Shown: positions 20,218 to 64,000 of the stretch, one piece after another
How positions within the stretch are numbered: position 1 is the first letter of the stretch
Layout: the number at the start of each line of letters is the position of its first letter
Sequence record: PV660452
Strand: one strand, 5' to 3'
Length of the DNA stretch: 64,000 nucleotides
Source: Escherichia phage LF82-9
Translations under genes and position numbers: made by a program
The notes under the pieces: model-generated
Databases searched by the model: none
The model's input: only the letters and a program-made list of their open reading frames with translations
What the model was told of the DNA's origin: nothing

Positions 20218-20688
20218 TTAATCATGTTTCCACACCCCATCGGTATTTGACCAAAGTCGCTGATTATCTGATCCTCGCCACAGCTTTTTGGTCGGAAGAT
20301 TTTTCTCATACTTCCCATCAATAATAACATCAACATATTTAAGCATTTTTAGTTGTTTAATATCTTCAAACTTATATCCTGTCCACAACCAAATGCTTTT
20401 ATTGGGATAAAGATTTTTAATAGTTTGAACCACAGAGTGAATCACATCTCGGTTATCAGGATAGAGAGGGTCACCTCCGGTTATAGTCAATCCTTCTATA
20501 TAATCATTATTCAAACATTCAATTAATTGTTCTAGTGTTTCACCAGTGAATGGAATACCATTTCTAGCATTCCATGTTGATTTATTATAACACCCTTCGC
20601 ATTTATGCAAACAACCTGTGACGAAAAGAACGACCCTACAACCAGGGCCATTCACAAAATCGCAAGGATAAAATCTATCATAATTCAT
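20218..20688 (-). CDS. nrdG: anaerobic ribonucleotide reductase activating protein NrdG (radical SAM)
   Basis: CLHKCEGC radical-SAM cysteine motif; position next to nrdD. Confidence 0.9.
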   Translation of the reverse strand: MNYDRFYPCDFVNGPGCRVVLFVTGCLHKCEGCYNKSTWNARNGIPFTGETLEQLIECLNNDYIEGLTITGGDPLYPDNRDVIHSVVQTIKNLYPNKSIWLWTGYKFEDIKQLKMLKYVDVIIDGKYEKNLPTKKLWRGSDNQRLWSNTDGVWKHD

Positions 20689-22502
20689 TGGTGTTTAACC
20701 CTATGCATGATTTCTTTATTTTTGCCGAGATTAAATCCACGTTCGTTCGGGTTCCCCAAATAACCGCACGTTCTTCTTATGGTGTTCATCTTTTTAGGAT
20801 CAGTTTCTCCACAAACTGAACAAACAAATCCATTTTCAGTAGGAGTCATCTCATGGGTACTTCCACACGTAAAACATTTATCTACTGGCATGTTAACACC
20901 AAAATAATCTAAATGTTGTGCAGCATAATCCCACACGGCCTCAAGACCTTTTAAGTTATTTTTCATATCAGGAAGTTCAACATAAGAAATGTGACCACCT
21001 GTCGCAATGAAATGATATGGCGCTTCACGAGAAATCTTTTCAAACGGAGTAATATTTTCTTCTACTGAAACATGGAAACTATTAGTGTACCAGCCTTTAT
21101 CAGTAACATCCTTTACACTTCCATATTTTTCTGTATCAAGTTTACAGAAGCGATAACAAAGGTTTTCAGCAGGAGTAGAATACAAGCTAAAAGCAAATCC
21201 GGTTCTTTCAGTCCACTGTTTAAGACGAGCATTCATTTTAGTTAAAATTTCTTGCCCAATATCACGACCGACAAGAATATTCAATTCGTGAATACCAATG
21301 TATCCTAAAGACACTGAACTTCTACCGTTTTTAAATAACTCAATTATGTCGTCATCAGGTTTAAGACGAACCCCGAATGCACCTTCTTGGTAAAGAATAG
21401 GAGCAACAGTCGCTTTAACACCCTTTAAAGAACTAATTCTACACATCAAGGCTTCAAAACACAGATCCATTCGTTCATTAAATAATTCGATAAATTTCTG
21501 TTCATTGAACTGTGTTCCAATATAAGAATCTAATGCGATACGAGGAAGATTCAGTGTTACAACACCAAGATTATTACGTCCATCAAGAATTTCATTACCA
21601 GTCGAATCTTTCCATACGCTCAAGAAACTACGGCAGCCCATTGGAGAAACTGGAACTGAAGAACCGGTAATAGCTTTATTATTCTTAACAGAAATAATGT
21701 CAGGATACATTCTTTTGCTTGCACATTCTAACGCAAGTTGTTTAATATCATAGTTCGGATCATCTTTATAAAGATTAACACCTTCTTCAACAAACATAAC
21801 AAGTTTAGGAAAAATAGGAGTTATTCCATCACGACCAAGACCTTTAATCCGATTTTTCAGAATTGCCTTCTGAATCATTCGTTCAGTCCAATCGGTTCCC
21901 GTACCAAATGTAATTGTTACAAAAGGCGTTTGTCCGTTTGAACTAAAGAGAGTATTTACTTCATATTCATAAGCTTGGAACGCATCGTATACGTCTTTTT
22001 CTGTTTTAGATTGGGCATAATTCAACGCATCAGCGATTTGCCATTTTTCTGCATCCTCAATATGTTTTGCATAGGTGCGTTTAACATAAGGAGAAAGAAC
22101 TTTATCGACATTCGCAAATGTAGTTCCGCCATACTGATGTGAAGCAACTTGTGCAGTAATTTGTGCCATAATTGCAGTAGCAACACCAATCGATTTAGGC
22201 GTTTCAATTTGAGCATTGCCTAATTTAAATCCATTCTCAAGCATCCCCTTTAAATCGACTAAACAGCAATTAGTAAATGGAAGAGCAGGAGAATAATCAA
22301 TATCATGCATATGAATGATTCCGCTTTCATGCGCATTCATAATAAAAGACGGGACCATATTTTTGGCAATGTGCTTAGACACAATACCAGCCATAAGGTC
22401 CCGTTGAGTTGGAAAAACACGAGAATCTTTATTAGCATTCTCGTTCAAAAGATCTTTATTAGTTTTATAAATTAATCCTTCAATTTCTTTTTCAATTTTC
22501 AT
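20685..22502 (-). CDS. nrdD: anaerobic ribonucleoside-triphosphate reductase NrdD, uninterrupted
   Basis: 605 aa; C-terminal glycyl-radical motif RTCGYLG and Zn-ribbon CxxC..CxxC. Confidence 0.95.
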   Translation of the reverse strand: MKIEKEIEGLIYKTNKDLLNENANKDSRVFPTQRDLMAGIVSKHIAKNMVPSFIMNAHESGIIHMHDIDYSPALPFTNCCLVDLKGMLENGFKLGNAQIETPKSIGVATAIMAQITAQVASHQYGGTTFANVDKVLSPYVKRTYAKHIEDAEKWQIADALNYAQSKTEKDVYDAFQAYEYEVNTLFSSNGQTPFVTITFGTGTDWTERMIQKAILKNRIKGLGRDGITPIFPKLVMFVEEGVNLYKDDPNYDIKQLALECASKRMYPDIISVKNNKAITGSSVPVSPMGCRSFLSVWKDSTGNEILDGRNNLGVVTLNLPRIALDSYIGTQFNEQKFIELFNERMDLCFEALMCRISSLKGVKATVAPILYQEGAFGVRLKPDDDIIELFKNGRSSVSLGYIGIHELNILVGRDIGQEILTKMNARLKQWTERTGFAFSLYSTPAENLCYRFCKLDTEKYGSVKDVTDKGWYTNSFHVSVEENITPFEKISREAPYHFIATGGHISYVELPDMKNNLKGLEAVWDYAAQHLDYFGVNMPVDKCFTCGSTHEMTPTENGFVCSVCGETDPKKMNTIRRTCGYLGNPNERGFNLGKNKEIMHRVKHQ

Positions 22503-34572: not shown

Positions 34573-35154
34573 TTATAACAACCCTGTCAAATCATTCCAA
34601 TGCTTCCGGCATAATGACACATATCTATCGGTATCACCAATTTCAATTTGACTGCCATCTGTAATTGGAAGTCCGTCTTCCGTGACTCTAGCTACCATTG
34701 TGGCCTTTTTACCACAATGACAGACACCTTTAAGTTCAACAAGCTTATCGGCAATAGCCATTAATGCTTGAGAACCTTCAAATAGATTACCTTTAAAATC
34801 TGTTCGTAGTCCATATGCCATTACCGGCACATTGTATACGTCAACAATACGACTAAGTTGATACACCTTTTCAGTAGTTAAGAACTGAGCTTCGTCAACA
34901 AATACGCAGTGAATATCCTTTTGTGCTGCAGCCCATTTATAGAATTCAAAGATATCCATGTCTTTTGTAATTATATTGGCATCCTGACGAATACCAATAC
35001 GAGAGACTATTTCACCTTTTGAATTACGAGTATCAATAGCCGGTTTAAGAACTAATACACCCATGCCACGTTCTTTATAGTTATGTGCGGCAGTAAGTAA
35101 TGAAGCAGACTTACCAGCGTTCATAGCGGCATAGGTAAAAATTAAACTAGCCAT
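34573..35154 (-). CDS. tk: thymidine kinase
   Basis: P-loop AMNAGKS, Zn-binding CHCGK..C; 193 aa as T4 Tk. Confidence 0.92.
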   Translation of the reverse strand: MASLIFTYAAMNAGKSASLLTAAHNYKERGMGVLVLKPAIDTRNSKGEIVSRIGIRQDANIITKDMDIFEFYKWAAAQKDIHCVFVDEAQFLTTEKVYQLSRIVDVYNVPVMAYGLRTDFKGNLFEGSQALMAIADKLVELKGVCHCGKKATMVARVTEDGLPITDGSQIEIGDTDRYVSLCRKHWNDLTGLL

Positions 35155-35532: not shown

Positions 35533-35750
35533 GTCACCTTTAAACAGTATTCTTCTACATGCTGTTTACGACCTTTCTTATCAATAAAGGTATATTCAAC
35601 GAATGTTCCAATGTAGTCTTTATCGACATCATGTGGACTATTAATTGGACATTTAGTACGACAAATGCGTTCCCATTGACGAATAATTACTGCTTTATTT
35701 TTAGGATCAAACGGATGTGGGTAATGCACATTCATAATAATGGTTCCCAA
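35523..35750 (-). CDS. hypothetical protein
   Basis: 75-aa ORF. Confidence 0.4.
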   Translation of the reverse strand: MGTIIMNVHYPHPFDPKNKAVIIRQWERICRTKCPINSPHDVDKDYIGTFVEYTFIDKKGRKQHVEEYCLKVTWL

Positions 35751-36229
35751 TCAACAATCACAATTTCTAGTTTAGTGGAATATGTATCAAGAATTTCTTC
35801 AATGATATCCCAGTTTCCACCACCTATACCTGCACCAATTCTTGGCATGTAAATCACAGGCTTTGCTATCTTATTCTTTCCGAATTTATTTAATTCTATT
35901 ATACAATTCATTAAAGCAGAGTACTCAAAATTAGGTCCGGGCTCAAACTGTGTATAAAGATTAAAGCAATAAGCTTTATGGGTCTTAAAATATTTTTCAT
36001 AAACCGAATAGGAACCGAGTTTAGACTCGTCTCCGAATTCGGTTTGAAGTTTATCGGCTTCTAAAATTTTTGGATAAGCCTTTGCTAATTGTCCTGCTAC
36101 ACCAGCGCCCATTGTATGAAAACAATTGCACCCATGAGCAATATTATTACCTTTAGAAAACAGGGCGACAATATCGCCCTTGATATAGTTTTTAATCACT
36201 TGCTGCAAGTCCTCTAGTATAAGAGTCAA
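35732..36229 (-). CDS. macro-domain-like protein (ADP-ribose binding/processing); start uncertain (TTG at 36229 or GTG at 36199)
   Basis: IAHGCNCFHTMGAGVAGQLAKAYP and PRIGAGIGGGNW resemble macro-domain motifs. Confidence 0.5.
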   Translation of the reverse strand: MTLILEDLQQVIKNYIKGDIVALFSKGNNIAHGCNCFHTMGAGVAGQLAKAYPKILEADKLQTEFGDESKLGSYSVYEKYFKTHKAYCFNLYTQFEPGPNFEYSALMNCIIELNKFGKNKIAKPVIYMPRIGAGIGGGNWDIIEEILDTYSTKLEIVIVDWEPLL

Positions 36230-37086: not shown

Positions 37087-37545
37087 CTAGATTTTAATCA
37101 CTGCTTTAGAAGCTTTTCCTGGTAGTCGTTTACTGTTAATAATAGCCATTCTGCATTGAAGAGTCTTCATTTTGAATGCTGGATTTTCGCGACAAACTGT
37201 AAGTCCTAACCAAAGATTTCCATCAGTTATTTCTAAACGGCCTGGGCGATATTCGACACCTTCGACAAAATCTTCATCAACATCTGGACGTGCCGGCATT
37301 GATAAAAATTCTGCAACTTCTTTAGCATGATTTTTTACTTTATGAAATAATTCAAAAACGTAATTCTCATCTATTTCTCTCTGGATGGCACGATCTAAGA
37401 GATGTTGAGAATACTTGATATGAAAGCCTGGTAGTCCAAGAGACTTTGCAGCATCTTTTATACCGGCATTTATTTTGCGGAACTCCGTTTCAAAGATTCG
37501 ACGGAGTTTATTACGGCGGATAAAAACTTCCGAATTGATAGTCAT
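37087..37545 (-). CDS. regB: endoribonuclease RegB
   Basis: MTINSEVFIRRNKLRR.. close to T4 RegB; ATG at 37545 with GAGGAG SD. Confidence 0.9.
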   Translation of the reverse strand: MTINSEVFIRRNKLRRIFETEFRKINAGIKDAAKSLGLPGFHIKYSQHLLDRAIQREIDENYVFELFHKVKNHAKEVAEFLSMPARPDVDEDFVEGVEYRPGRLEITDGNLWLGLTVCRENPAFKMKTLQCRMAIINSKRLPGKASKAVIKI

Positions 37546-37564
37546 TTTGATTTCTCCTCTAGTT

Positions 37565-37602
37565 GACAAGTCTATAGTAACACAACTAGAGGAGAAGTAA
37601 AC
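37565..37602 (-). promoter_or_regulatory. early promoter/stem-loop cassette upstream of regB
   Basis: GTTTACT N17 then -10 region with inverted repeat. Confidence 0.4.
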
Positions 37603-37901
37603 TACTCTTTGAAAGGAATTAACTTTTTAACTGCTTTAGATACTTCGTCACGAACCTGATGGAAGTTCTTGAGCTGTTCAAGGCGTTGTTCGTAATACGC
37701 AATCTCATCTTCTTCAAGACAATCGTCAGCGTCTTCTTTCAGATATGCCTTGTACTCATTAAAGAGGGCCCATAGGCGGTTCTCAAAGTCATCAAGGCTT
37801 TGAATTTTCTTGTGCTTCGGAACAAGGCCAAAAGGATTGCTTTCAGTTATGCGTCTAGATGCTTCATAATGAGTTCCAAAGCCTGATAGGATTTGAGCCA
37901 T
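37602..37901 (-). CDS. hypothetical protein (vs region)
   Basis: 99-aa ORF. Confidence 0.45.
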
Positions 37902-38167
37902 TAGTATTTTTCCTCAGGTCGAAATACTGCACGACAGGCCCACATGCTGGCTTCTTTTAGATGTTGCTTAGCATACTTAAGAGCCTGTACTGCATCCATA
38001 TCTTCTTTGGTTTGTTGCTCTGTTTCATTTTCTTTCAAGATATATGCTTCTTCAATCAGAGCATCAAACAACAATCCAAGACGGACTTCTGCATCTTTAA
38101 TAGCGTTCACTTTACCGATTTTATCGTCGGTATGCGGCTTGTAGCCTTTGATGTCTTCAATCGACAT
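37901..38167 (-). CDS. hypothetical protein (vs region), ATG with GAGGAAA SD
   Basis: [20 protein letters not shown]... Confidence 0.4.
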
Positions 38168-38381
38168 AAGGAATTTCCTCATCGGTGACAAGGTCATATT
38201 CGACCAATTGGATAGGCTCGTTAATACCATATCCACGTACAGTGATATCGGTTGTCGGATATTTTCCAGTAATATCACCCATTCTAAATGCTTCAGTGAA
38301 TGATTGCTCACCTGAGCAACTAAACCAGGCGGCAAAACATTTTAAAACATCTTCAGACCCTTCTATAATCAATTTAGCCAT
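38157..38381 (-). CDS. hypothetical protein
   Basis: 74-aa ORF; ATG overlaps stop of GrcA-like gene. Confidence 0.45.
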   Translation of the reverse strand: MAKLIIEGSEDVLKCFAAWFSCSGEQSFTEAFRMGDITGKYPTTDITVRGYGINEPIQLVEYDLVTDEEIPYVD

Positions 38382-38743
38382 TATAGACTCTCAGTAAAGG
38401 TACGAGCGATAACGTCGCGCTGCTGTTCCGGAGTCAGAGAGTTAAAGCGAACTGCATAACCGGATACACGAATGGTCAGCTGAGGATATTTTTCCGGATG
38501 CTTAACTGCATCTTCCAGAGTTTCACGACGCAGAACGTTAACGTTCAGGTGTTGACCACCTTCAATTTTAACTTTAGGTTGATGTTCAATTTCAATTTCA
38601 CGGGCATGTAAACCGTAGAAAATTTCCGGGTCTACAATAGCGTCTTCTTTAAAAGTCTTAGAGACGATAATCCGGGCTTGAGTACCATCTTCAAAATAAA
38701 TAGTGCCTTTATGTACACCTTCAAGAATTTGATATGCTTTCAT
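38381..38743 (-). CDS. autonomous glycyl radical cofactor (GrcA/YfiD-like; T4 Y06I-like)
   Basis: C-terminal half near-identical to E. coli GrcA incl. glycyl-radical motif RVSGYAV. Confidence 0.85.
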
Positions 38744-38749
38744 ATAACC

Positions 38750-39058
38750 TCAATTAGAAAATAAATTTATCCAAGTTTTTTCTTTAATCAAAAATGGGTC
38801 GGAATTAAACGCCATTAAACTTTGAGTGATTAATCCCTTAAACGGCCCATCAATAAATTCCATTTTGAAATGCGGAATACTAGTCATCAACCGTGCATTA
38901 GGAGCAGTACAAAGAACCTGCTGCCCCGCGAAAGGACCTTTAGTCAAACTGTATCGTTTAGGTTTAAAATGGTAAATCTCATAATTTTCTACAAGAGCCC
39001 TTTTATTGCATACTGGGCTGTTATAACAATATTCAAAAACTTCAATAGTGGTCATCAT
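38750..39058 (-). CDS. hypothetical protein
   Basis: 102-aa ORF. Confidence 0.45.
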   Translation of the reverse strand: MMTTIEVFEYCYNSPVCNKRALVENYEIYHFKPKRYSLTKGPFAGQQVLCTAPNARLMTSIPHFKMEFIDGPFKGLITQSLMAFNSDPFLIKEKTWINLFSN

Positions 39059-40342: not shown

Positions 40343-40756
40343 TTAGTAAATTGATTTACCATAGTATTTGTACCAAGTAGGACGTTGAGCAATTTTTTCA
40401 TCTAAGCGTGCTTGACTTATCGCAACGGACGCTTCGGACGGGACATAATTATTACGAAATTCGGCAGGGATGTCGGAAATATCCTGGACTGTCGTGTCCT
40501 TGATTTTGAAACCACGTTTCAAGCATTCAGCGATTAGCTCGATTTGTCGTAAACGTAAAAATTCAAGTTTGTCGTAAAAGAATGTTACGTGACCTGTGCC
40601 TAAGATAAATGTTGGAGAGATTTTAAAATCCTTTACACGTTTACCGTTTTGGACATGTTTACGGACTGCACTAAATACGCGTGGTAATTCACGATACTCA
40701 GCCATAAGATGTTGATCGGTCAGTTCAGAAACAAGTGTTAAATTGATACGAGTCAT
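40343..40756 (-). CDS. denV: endonuclease V (pyrimidine dimer glycosylase DenV)
   Basis: [27 protein letters not shown].. near-identical to T4 DenV. Confidence 0.93.
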
Positions 40757-40774
40757 AATTTCCTCCAAGTAGTT

Positions 40775-40814: not shown

Positions 40815-41096
40815 CTATTTTTCTGAAGCGCCTGAAATATATTTTTCAAGACGTTGTTTCATCAGCGAGCCGTTCTTAGCGATTTCTTCCGGTTTATCGC
40901 ACATACGTAACAAGGCTTCAAGCTTAGCGATATCGCTGGTACGTTCAAATTTGCGAGTATCTATCTTACTAGCAAGTTCAGAAATACGTGCTAATAGACT
41001 TTCGGCTTCAACCAAAGCTGCACCTAGCTTAGTTGCAAATGTGTCAGTAGCTTCGTTAAGAATAGATTCTGATAAAAATTCACTATATGTTTTCAT
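40815..41096 (-). CDS. internal protein-like with capsid-targeting N-terminus
   Basis: [11 protein letters not shown]... Confidence 0.55.
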
Positions 41097-41581
41097 ATAT
41101 ACGCTTTCCAAGTTCCTGTTTTAAATGTTGAGATTACGCGTTTCGCGCGATTAGGTGTCTGACGATACCATTTAGATTGGGCGAGATTTACTGCCGCTTC
41201 ATCCCAACGTTTCTGTTGAAGCATACGAAGAGAATTAGTAAAACCAGCAACGCCTGCTACACCCATTTGGAAGACCATATTGACCAATGCACACCGACGA
41301 ACTGCATCTAAAGAATCATATACCGGTTTAAGTTTAGCATTACCCAAGATTCCGCGAACGGCTTTATCGACGTCTTCATTAAATAGCTTTTCAGCCTCAT
41401 CAAGGGTAATTGTACCGTTGCATTTACGACCGATCATTCTGTCAAGTTCAGCTTTAGCTACGGCTAAAGACGGGTTCTTTGTTACCAAGTGGCCTATGCC
41501 AATCGTCCAAAAGCCTTCAGTGTCTTTGTATAAAGTCAGTCTAAGACCTTCGTCATTACGAAGCATTTCAAATATATTCAT
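41093..41581 (-). CDS. e: lysozyme (gene e)
   Basis: [29 protein letters not shown] near-identical to T4 lysozyme. Confidence 0.97.
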
Positions 41582-41609
41582 AATACCTCCCACGTTTATA
41601 GGAGGTATT
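41582..41609 (-). promoter_or_regulatory. RBS-sequestering hairpin with late-promoter-like TATAAAC in the loop, upstream of gene e
   Basis: Minus strand AATACCTCC-TATAAACGTG-GGAGGTATT then ATG; SD GGAGG paired with ACCTCC. Confidence 0.5.
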
Positions 41610-50547: not shown

Positions 50548-50551
50548 AAAT

Positions 50552-50638
50552 TGGTGGGGAGTGGTGGAGTCGAACCACCCGAGTCGCAATGACAATGAAT
50601 TTACAGTCCACACCGCTACCTCTACGGGATAACTCCCC
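50552..50638 (-). tRNA. tRNA-Tyr (anticodon GUA), long variable arm
   Basis: Acceptor GGGGAGT/ACTCCCC, anticodon loop CTGTAAA, T-arm GGTGGTTCGACTCCACC. Confidence 0.6.
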
Positions 50639-50644
50639 TTAATT

Positions 50645-61752: not shown

Positions 61753-64000
61753 CAGTAAAAGCGCCAGCAGTCACGAGTCTCAGATTATCTAAATTGTCCG
61801 CAAACCAAGTTCAAATTCGCTGGGATGAGGTTGGCGCTAATTTCTACTATTTTGTGGAAATAGCTGAGACCAAAACAGCTAACGGGGAAGCAATTCCCCG
61901 TAATAGCTATAGATGGACTAATTTAGGATATACCGCTGATAACAATTTCTTTGAGTCTGGTTTAAATTCATTAACAACATATATGATGCGTGTGGCTACA
62001 GCAGCGGAGGGATTTGAGCAGTCTGATTGGAGATACACCGAAGAGTTTGAAACATTTGAAATAAACGCTTACACATTCCAACATATGATTGAAATGCAAT
62101 TAGCTAACGAGTTTATTTCTGAAAAATTTACAAAAAATAATACAAACTACGTTGATTTTAATAATGACACGATCATGGCAGCACTGATGAGCGAGTCGTT
62201 CCAATTTAGTCCTGCATACACCGATGTGTCATCGATTAGAAATTTTATAATTGGTGAAAATCAGTATCATGAAATCCAGGGGCATATCCAGGATGTATGT
62301 AAAGATATAAATCGAGTATATCTAATGGAATCTGAAGGAATTCTTTACCTTTTTGAAAGATTCCAACCTATTGTAAAAGTGTCTAATGATAAAGGCCAAA
62401 CATGGAAAGCGGTTAAATTGCTTAATGACCGTGTAGGATATCCACTTTCACGAACCGTATATTACCAATCAGAATATACGACGTATTTGCTCGGCTATGA
62501 TAAGATTTTTTACGGGCGTAAATCATCCGATATTCGTTGGTCTGCTGATGATGTTCGTTTCAGTTCACAAGACGTAACATTTGCTAAAATCGGGGACCAA
62601 TTAAATTTAGGTTTTGATGTAGAGATTTTCGGTACATACGCGTCATTGCCAGGAAACGTATCACGTATTGCAGAAGCTATTACTTGTAATGATGACTATG
62701 TTTATATTGCGGCCAGAGATAAAGTTCGCTTCGTTAAAACCAGTAACGCTCCTATTGATTCAGATCCATTATCTCCGACCTATTCCGAACGGTTGTTTGA
62801 ACCTGAGATGTTTACAATAACAGGCAACCCTAAAGCAGTTTGTTATAAAATGGATTCTGTTGGTGGAAGAATATTCGCTCTTATTATTGGTGAAGTCGAA
62901 AACGTTAATGACGACCCAAGAACAAAGCCTATTTTGGATTCTGTTGATAAAGGTGTATACGTTTTAGACCATGACGCTGGAACATTTAAAAGGATATTTG
63001 GTAATACTGAAGAAGAACGCCGTCGTATAGAACCGGCTTTCACCAATATGTCTACTGACGGTGTTGAGCTTTATATCTCTTCTAGTAATTTTAAATTTTT
63101 AGAATCTGATATTGTTGACGACCCGGAAACGCAATCTAAGTATGGACTTTTAGGAGCGGTTAAGTATGAATATCCTAGAGAATGGCTCGCAGATAAACAT
63201 TACCATATGATGATTTTCGCATCAAACGAAGAAAGTAATTGGGAAACTTTTTCACCAACTCCTATGCAGTATTATGCAGAACCTTTCTTTAGTTATTCTA
63301 GAAAATCAGGCACACGTTCTTGGATTAATAACTCTGATAGAGCGGTAGTGATTTATTCTGATTTGCTTTACACAAAGGTAGTGGAAAGCTACCCTAGCAC
63401 TTCACCTGATCGTAAAGTTCACGAATACTGGAATGATGGCGATTGTAAGATTGTTATGCCGAATATAGAATTCACTGGATTTAAAAAATACGCGTCTGGT
63501 ATGTTGTTTTATAAATCATCAGGTGAAATAATTTCATATTATGATTTTAGTTATCGTGTTAGAGATAACGTTTCTATAATTTGGAAGCCCACTAACGTAT
63601 TTTTGACCGCCTCATTACAAAACCAAGAAAAAGAAACTTCTTGGGTTCCTGTTGAAGAGACAGGTCTAGCTGACCCGGATTTACGCCCATTACTCACTAC
63701 AATGATGCCAGAGTCTTATCTGTTGGATAATACAAACTTTGAAGCATTTTGTGAAGCGTATATTCAATATCTTTCTGATGGATATGGGACTCATTATAAT
63801 AACTTATTGAATTTGATTAAAAATAAATACCCGCGAGAAGAACACGCATGGGAATATCTTTGGTCTGAAATTTATAAACGGAACATTTATTTGAATGCTG
63901 AGAAACGTGATTTAGTTTCTAGGTTCTTTGAGTCCAGAAGTTATGATTTTTATTCTACTAAAGGAACTGAAGCATCGTATAAGTTTTTGTTTAAAGTTCT
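61749..64000 (+). CDS. 7: baseplate wedge protein gp7, N-terminal ~750 aa (continues past window end)
   Basis: ATG at 61749 overlapping gp6 stop; MTVKAPAVTSLRLSKLSANQVQIRWDEVGANFYYFVEIAETK.. matches T4 gp7; no stop in window. Confidence 0.92.
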   Translation, partial: MTVKAPAVTSLRLSKLSANQVQIRWDEVGANFYYFVEIAETKTANGEAIPRNSYRWTNLGYTADNNFFESGLNSLTTYMMRVATAAEGFEQSDWRYTEEFETFEINAYTFQHMIEMQLANEFISEKFTKNNTNYVDFNNDTIMAALMSESFQFSPAYTDVSSIRNFIIGENQYHEIQGHIQDVCKDINRVYLMESEGILYLFERFQPIVKVSNDKGQTWKAVKLLNDRVGYPLSRTVYYQSEYTTYLLGYDKIFYGRKSSDIRWSADDVRFSSQDVTFAKIGDQLNLGFDVEIFGTYASLPGNVSRIAEAITCNDDYVYIAARDKVRFVKTSNAPIDSDPLSPTYSERLFEPEMFTITGNPKAVCYKMDSVGGRIFALIIGEVENVNDDPRTKPILDSVDKGVYVLDHDAGTFKRIFGNTEEERRRIEPAFTNMSTDGVELYISSSNFKFLESDIVDDPETQSKYGLLGAVKYEYPREWLADKHYHMMIFASNEESNWETFSPTPMQYYAEPFFSYSRKSGTRSWINNSDRAVVIYSDLLYTKVVESYPSTSPDRKVHEYWNDGDCKIVMPNIEFTGFKKYASGMLFYKSSGEIISYYDFSYRVRDNVSIIWKPTNVFLTASLQNQEKETSWVPVEETGLADPDLRPLLTTMMPESYLLDNTNFEAFCEAYIQYLSDGYGTHYNNLLNLIKNKYPREEHAWEYLWSEIYKRNIYLNAEKRDLVSRFFESRSYDFYSTKGTEASYKFLFKV

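Follow-up and report, generated by a model that had tools for sequence, protein, structure and literature searches.

The 64,000-nucleotide stretch of Escherichia phage LF82-9 analyzed here (PV660452; the window) contains a complete 120-aa open reading frame (ORF) at positions 38381..38743 on the minus strand. As read from the sequence, it runs from an ATG (38743-38741) to a TAA (38383-38381). A sequence-only reading had assigned this frame to a phage-encoded GrcA/YfiD-like glycyl radical cofactor; its boundaries and strand prove exact, and the C-terminal string that it quoted is found in the translation. The ORF itself, its domain content, and its identity to a T4 protein mark it as the phage GrcA, ortholog of T4 vs.6 (Y06I). 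The gene consists of two halves. Codons 1 to 60 (38564..38743) encode a phage-type N-terminal half, which is diverged from bacterial grcA and shows purifying selection. Codons 61 to 120 (38384..38563) encode the glycyl-radical domain, equivalent to residues 68 to 127 of Escherichia coli GrcA and corresponding to residues ~700 to 759 of pyruvate formate-lyase (PFL). The codon of the predicted radical glycine, Gly95, was placed at 38459..38461 by alignment and by counting along the translation. Base-by-base alignment with E. coli grcA also delimits a host-like DNA tract at gene nucleotides 178 to 353 (38391..38566). All of these features lie on the minus strand.

The gene is tightly packed between its neighbors. 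A Shine-Dalgarno-like GAGG (38748..38751, minus strand), located 4 nt 5' of the ATG, overlaps the TGA stop codon of the vs.7-like ORF that precedes the gene (38750-39058). At the 3' end of the gene, in the sequence TAATG (38379-38383), the grcA stop codon overlaps the ATG of the downstream vs.5-like ORF (38157-38381). With these overlaps at both ends, grcA belongs to a tightly packed series of early-region genes on the minus strand whose translation is coupled. Scans for promoters and terminators around grcA give counts at or near the shuffle expectation, with nothing convincing adjoining the gene, so that no claim of independent local regulation is made.

The neighborhood follows the T4 gene order, from lysozyme e (41093-41593) through the internal protein genes, denV (40343-40768), the vs.7-like ORF, grcA, the vs.5-like ORF, an ORF at the vs.4 position, a vs.3-like ORF, and regB (37087-37569) to tk (34573-35154). 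The ORF at the vs.4 position (37901-38335, minus strand), two genes downstream of grcA, contains the Acb2/Tad1 hairpin domain (PF24729; E = 1.5e-17) and probably encodes an anti-CBASS/Thoeris nucleotide sponge. The shorter annotation in HX01 makes an internal ATG the probable start of this ORF. At 35732-36229 on the minus strand, where T4 has tk.4 ("A1pp phosphatase"), lies an ORF that contains a Macro domain (PF01661). Plasmid sequences matched the query somewhere at 214 places; the one listed is an 88.4% match between ~50549-50642 and the tRNA-Tyr on a single E. coli plasmid record, and this stretch is probably part of the tRNA cluster of the phage.

Domain composition

The sole Pfam match of the phage protein is the Gly_radical domain (PF01228; E = 2.1e-18), with residues 60 to 101 aligned to profile positions 65 to 106. 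Among NCBIfam models, TIGR04365 (autonomous glycyl radical cofactor GrcA) scores best, with 158.6 bits over residues 18 to 120. This falls below the equivalog cutoff of 170 bits because the N-terminal half is diverged. In searches against the PDB, the best match is E. coli GrcA (6OWR; E = 1.9e-42), with residues 21 to 120 aligned to 27 to 127. PFL chains come next (E = 3e-26), with a 64-residue alignment of positions 57 to 120 to PFL 696 to 759. The GrcA matches are far above chance.

Codon-level alignment shows that residues 61 to 120 are identical to residues 68 to 127 of E. coli GrcA at all 60 positions, as the sequence-only reading had claimed for the C-terminal ~60 residues. At least 50 of the 64 aligned residues of this half are also identical in PFL. 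The radical motif R92-V-S-G95-Y-A-V98 is intact, and G95 aligns with Gly102 of GrcA and Gly734 of PFL; the alignment thus shows neither loss of the radical glycine nor low identity. The identity to the corresponding half of 6OWR and the alignment to PFL 696 to 759 place the C-terminal half of the phage protein with the structured part of GrcA, a duplicate of PFL ~693 to 759. Together with a 94% identity to T4 vs.6, the Gly_radical, TIGR04365, and 6OWR matches support the view that the ORF encodes an autonomous glycyl radical cofactor of the GrcA/YfiD type, homologous to Y06I.

The phage protein differs from E. coli GrcA (YfiD) in being 7 residues shorter and in its N-terminal half, which is only ~30% identical; homology is detectable from residue ~18 to 21 on. 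The presumed partners, PFL and PFL-AE, are common to both. In E. coli, grcA adjoins ung, whereas the phage gene lies in a run of early-region genes. In the glycyl radical domain of PflB (PDB 1H16 and 2PFL), the aligned residues 696 to 759 are the part that the phage protein is thought to replace. At 120 aa, phage GrcA is a small stand-alone protein of the ~14-kDa class that, unlike PflB, has the glycyl-radical domain without the PFL catalytic barrel and cannot be an enzyme alone.

Orthologs and phyletic distribution

LF82-9 is a Mosigvirus. Over its 363 nt, the gene is 100% identical to that of Escherichia phage LF82-1 and sister isolates, where it is annotated as a "hypothetical protein." It is ~98% identical to the genes of Mosigvirus genomes such as HX01, where RefSeq names the product "autonomous glycyl radical cofactor GrcA." The T4 equivalent (NC_000866) is vs.6 (63557-63919; NP_049730), likewise named GrcA in RefSeq. 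Both proteins are 120 aa long and share 113 residues (94%). Since vs.6 is Y06I and has the same neighbors, the T4 homolog that had been proposed from the sequence is confirmed. The order denV ... vs.7-vs.6-vs.5-vs.4-vs.3-regB is the same in LF82-9, T4, and HX01, and the gene falls into the vs.6 orthologous group. T4 vs.6 has the same mosaic build, with a phage-type N-terminal half and an E. coli-type C-terminal half, and lies in the same place, with denV upstream and regB downstream. The seven differing residues comprise six in the N-terminal half (54/60 identical) and position 73, which is His in T4 and Arg in LF82-9. Accordingly, the C-terminal half matches E. coli GrcA at 60/60 positions in LF82-9 and at 59/60 in T4.

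Related copies are found in 1,523 phage records, 925 of which match at least 80% of the gene length. The length of 363 nt is constant in Tequatrovirus, Mosigvirus, Jiaodavirus, Slopekvirus, and Pseudotevenvirus. T5 (T5.056), Krischvirus, Slopekvirus, and Pseudotevenvirus likewise encode small stand-alone Gly_radical proteins, and those of T5, Slopekvirus, and Pseudotevenvirus have a similar phage-type N terminus that opens with MKAYQ or MKAFQ; the MKAYQ opening of the T5 protein is shared with the T4-like proteins. The 3' halves of the T5-like, Krischvirus, Slopekvirus, and Pseudotevenvirus genes are 72 to 85% identical at the nucleotide level to any enterobacterial grcA tested and have no recent host-like tract. 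The proteins of T5 (AY543070.1, piece L089, 420-788) and Krischvirus MIZ2 (piece L090, 367-783) consist of 122 and 138 aa, respectively, and their C-terminal halves are more diverged, with 47 to 57 of 60 residues identical to bacterial GrcA.

Many of the phage copies are already annotated as GrcA, and T4 Y06I was reportedly characterized in 2001. The identification of the gene is therefore not new: the LF82-9 protein is ordinary and belongs with T4 vs.6/Y06I in a group that is already widely annotated.

Mosaic structure of the gene

The two halves of the gene differ sharply in their relation to E. coli grcA. Codons 1 to 60 are 45 to 62% identical to it at the nucleotide level and about 30% at the amino acid level (17 to 18 of 60 residues), with a GC content of 0.34. 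Codons 61 to 120 are 97.2% identical (98.3% in T4), with a GC content of 0.48. From nucleotide 178 to nucleotide 353 of the gene there are only 2 mismatches in 176 positions, and the similarity drops abruptly on both sides; the residual differences in the 3' half cluster in the last three codons. A megablast match at 38373/38376-38565 falls on grcA in each of 5,426 E. coli genomes. Within the 24 kb from 27000 to 51000 of the window, no DNA other than the grcA tract matches all 5,426 E. coli chromosomes.

The N-terminal half shares only 12 to 19 of its 60 residues with 81 bacterial GrcA N termini. The bacterial pattern MITGIQIT...NSFWLLD...EARC is absent, and only a (Q/E)ARxIVxK..F.ED core is kept. 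Between LF82-9 and T4, this half shows a dN of 0.055 and a dS of 0.44 (dN/dS, ~0.13), indicating purifying selection.

The amino acid sequence of the C-terminal half hardly varies among Enterobacterales and Pasteurellaceae, so that protein identity alone means little here. The DNA is more telling. The phage tract is 96 to 98% identical to Escherichia grcA and at most 91% identical to that of the next-best bacterial genus. Whereas the last 60 codons of grcA from E. coli and Klebsiella pneumoniae differ at 12% of positions (dS, 0.56), the same codons of E. coli phages and E. coli show a dS of only 0.05 to 0.12. Amino acid or codon constraint alone was rejected as the cause of the 3' identity on the basis of these dS values; it is also contradicted by the phage states, which follow the host at host-informative sites (see below). 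Comparison of the two phages reveals the same break: the identity between LF82-9 and T4 is 77.6% across 5.6 kb around the gene and rises to 89% in the 5' half of grcA and to 96.7% in the 3' half.

Host-specific variation of the 3' half

In the last 60 codons, grcA of K. pneumoniae (taken from a chromosome filed as a plasmid) differs from that of E. coli at 21 sites. At these sites, the LF82-9 gene has the E. coli state 20 times and the K. pneumoniae state once, as do HX01 (Mosigvirus) and a Tequatrovirus isolated on Yersinia; T4 has the E. coli state at all 21 sites and the K. pneumoniae state at none. The Klebsiella Jiaodaviruses show the opposite pattern, with 3 E. coli and 15 K. pneumoniae states in KP01 and 2 and 15, respectively, in PKO111. 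Tracts of E. coli Tequatrovirus and Mosigvirus are 97 to 99% identical to E. coli grcA at the nucleotide level. A search of phages with the K. pneumoniae tract finds 106 records at 95 to 99% identity, and those listed are almost all Klebsiella phages, with one Salmonella phage. In Klebsiella T4-like phages, the tract is 97 to 98% identical to K. pneumoniae grcA; that of KPV15 is 98.2% identical to it over 168 nt. The 5' halves of the E. coli-phage and Klebsiella-phage genes are homologous to each other, with 72 to 75% nucleotide identity.

The simplest reading of these data is a single old phage gene whose radical half has been replaced or homogenized by host grcA independently in different lineages, the high DNA similarity of the conserved tract making exchange between host and phage possible. 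Phage grcA would then be a maintained chimera, in which a vertically inherited phage N-terminal "adaptor" is joined to a radical half that is repeatedly overwritten, by gene conversion from host to phage, with grcA of the current host; we favor this view, with some reserve. Part of the mosaic pattern may reflect one recent capture and subsequent transfer among phages, or selection at synonymous sites, but both leave unexplained why the tract follows the host genus.

Host tracking was also considered for Slopekvirus, Pseudotevenvirus, Krischvirus, and T5-like phages and found no support there: their genes show mixed states and the 72 to 85% identity to the bacterial grcA tested that is given above.

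In Yersinia phage PYps14T (MT526905.1, piece L091, 601-963), a Tequatrovirus whose isolation host was Yersinia pseudotuberculosis, the tract is of the E. coli type, with 97.2% identity to E. coli grcA and 82% to that of Y. artesiana, the one Yersinia species compared. This suggests that the usual or recent host of PYps14T is Escherichia, and it implies that the listed isolation host is not always the donor.

Some of the database copies are irregular. In KPV15 (NC_055715.1, piece L094, 422-783), a 1-nt deletion in a T run splits the RefSeq grcA into two coding sequences; the frameshift may be either genuine or an error in sequencing. In K. aerogenes NCTC10006, grcA is likewise frameshifted. CP125156.1 and LR134122.1 are chromosome-sized or chromosomal pieces labeled as plasmids, including a 5.37-Mb K. 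pneumoniae "plasmid."

Predicted function

According to a 2021 paper (PMC8683613) that cites Wagner et al. 2001 (PMID 11444864), only YfiD (GrcA) and T4 Y06I have been validated as "spare part" proteins: PFL-AE puts a glycyl radical on either of them, and the complex of the activated protein with oxygen-cleaved PFL regains activity. In GrcA, residues 61 to 127 are structured, duplicate PFL residues 693 to 759, and insert into PFL, whereas residues 1 to 60 are disordered and dispensable for catalysis but matter for binding of cleaved PFL and for radical installation (PMC8683613). The 94% identity to Y06I and the identity of the C-terminal half to GrcA make the same repair of host PFL the most likely function, and we consider it very likely that the ORF is the Mosigvirus ortholog of vs.6/Y06I and serves as an autonomous glycyl radical spare part for the PFL of the host. 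Seen directly are the sequence identity, the intact motif, the orthology and synteny with T4 vs.6, and the purifying selection on the phage-specific half; the biochemical activity of the T4 protein is taken from the literature, and we infer the PFL repair activity of the LF82-9 protein and its benefit to the phage.

The proposed mechanism is as follows. Oxygen would cut activated host PFL at Gly734, and phage GrcA would bind the cleaved enzyme, its C-terminal 60 residues, the same as in host GrcA, standing in for the lost glycyl-radical loop and C-terminal helix. Host PFL-AE would install the radical on Gly95, and conversion of pyruvate to acetyl-CoA and formate would resume. With host gene expression shut off by a T4-type phage, a phage-borne copy might keep fermentative energy and acetyl-CoA production going in a microaerobic gut host. 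The literature consulted describes no phenotype for a phage vs.6 mutant, and searches for phage GrcA in an auxiliary-gene role yielded no relevant paper.

It is unlikely that the protein is a spare part chiefly for another glycyl radical enzyme, such as the phage NrdD or the host TdcE or other PFL-like enzymes. Spare parts for further glycyl radical enzymes have been the subject of speculation (PMC8683613), and the nucleotide similarity of E. coli tdcE to the radical domain makes rescue of TdcE conceivable. The same phage encodes NrdD (20685-22502, minus strand; NRDD and oxygen-sensitive Gly_radical domains) and the radical SAM protein NrdG (20218-20688, minus strand), both identified by domain search. 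However, the C-terminal half is identical to that of GrcA and shares more than three-quarters of its aligned residues with PFL, and the activase of NrdD is NrdG rather than PFL-AE. The sequence-only reading had phage grcA sitting with nrdD and nrdG in an anaerobic toolkit. Both genes are indeed present in the window, but they lie 15.9 kb downstream of grcA and do not adjoin it; in T4, vs.6 and the nrd locus are 40 annotated genes apart (T4p117 versus T4p076). BLASTP of phage GrcA against phage NrdD gives no significant similarity (E = 2.4), with the radical loops unaligned. Neither linkage nor sequence affinity thus assigns grcA to the nrdD-nrdG module. Given this distance and the lack of a meaningful BLASTP alignment, the "anaerobic toolkit" link is thematic at most, not physical, and the idea of a co-located toolkit or an NrdD spare part was rejected. 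The shared theme is that NrdD/NrdG and grcA are both oxygen-sensitive glycyl-radical systems, and the sequence ties the protein to PFL. In LF82-9, nrdD forms one continuous ORF of 605 aa, with a 4-nt overlap with nrdG (20218-22502, minus strand), whereas in T4 an intron with I-TevII interrupts nrdD and mobC separates it from nrdG.

The divergence of the N-terminal half, together with the role of its counterpart in the binding of cleaved PFL by E. coli GrcA (PMC8683613), means that the binding behavior of the phage protein could differ. A decoy or regulator, in which this half redirects the radical domain, e.g., titrating PFL-AE or blocking host PFL and so remodeling fermentation, would draw on the same two points: without the bacterial NSFWLLD...EARC pattern, the half is nonetheless subject to purifying selection among phages, and in E. 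coli the corresponding half governs binding. Nevertheless, the T4 ortholog, with an N terminus identical at 54 of 60 positions, is reported in PMC8683613 to restore PFL activity, and such a role is slightly less probable still than service to another enzyme. Least probable of all is a functionless passenger, a host fragment gained by recombination and merely tolerated: although the 3' half is nearly host DNA and some database copies, such as KPV15, carry frameshifts, the LF82-9 gene has an intact frame preceded by a ribosome-binding site and is closely coupled to the adjacent genes, its length is constant across the five genera listed above, and dN/dS is well under 1 in the phage-specific half.

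Implications

The identification is of value because it corrects the annotation of the 100%-identical gene in the records of LF82 phages, which carry "hypothetical protein," and because the gene exemplifies a metabolic helper that a phage brings along for low-oxygen gut life. The host-tracking 3' half is a modest, testable evolutionary observation. A literature search of incomplete coverage found no earlier description of this mosaic, which may exist elsewhere. The mosaic suggests that, at a single short and highly conserved locus, strictly lytic T4-like phages continue to receive DNA from the chromosome of the host. At grcA, this flow from host to phage would be directly measurable and could mark the recent host genus of a phage. 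If true, this would represent a naturally recurring and easily measured instance in which a virulent phage copies chromosomal host DNA and thereby keeps the host-interacting part of a protein matched to its host.
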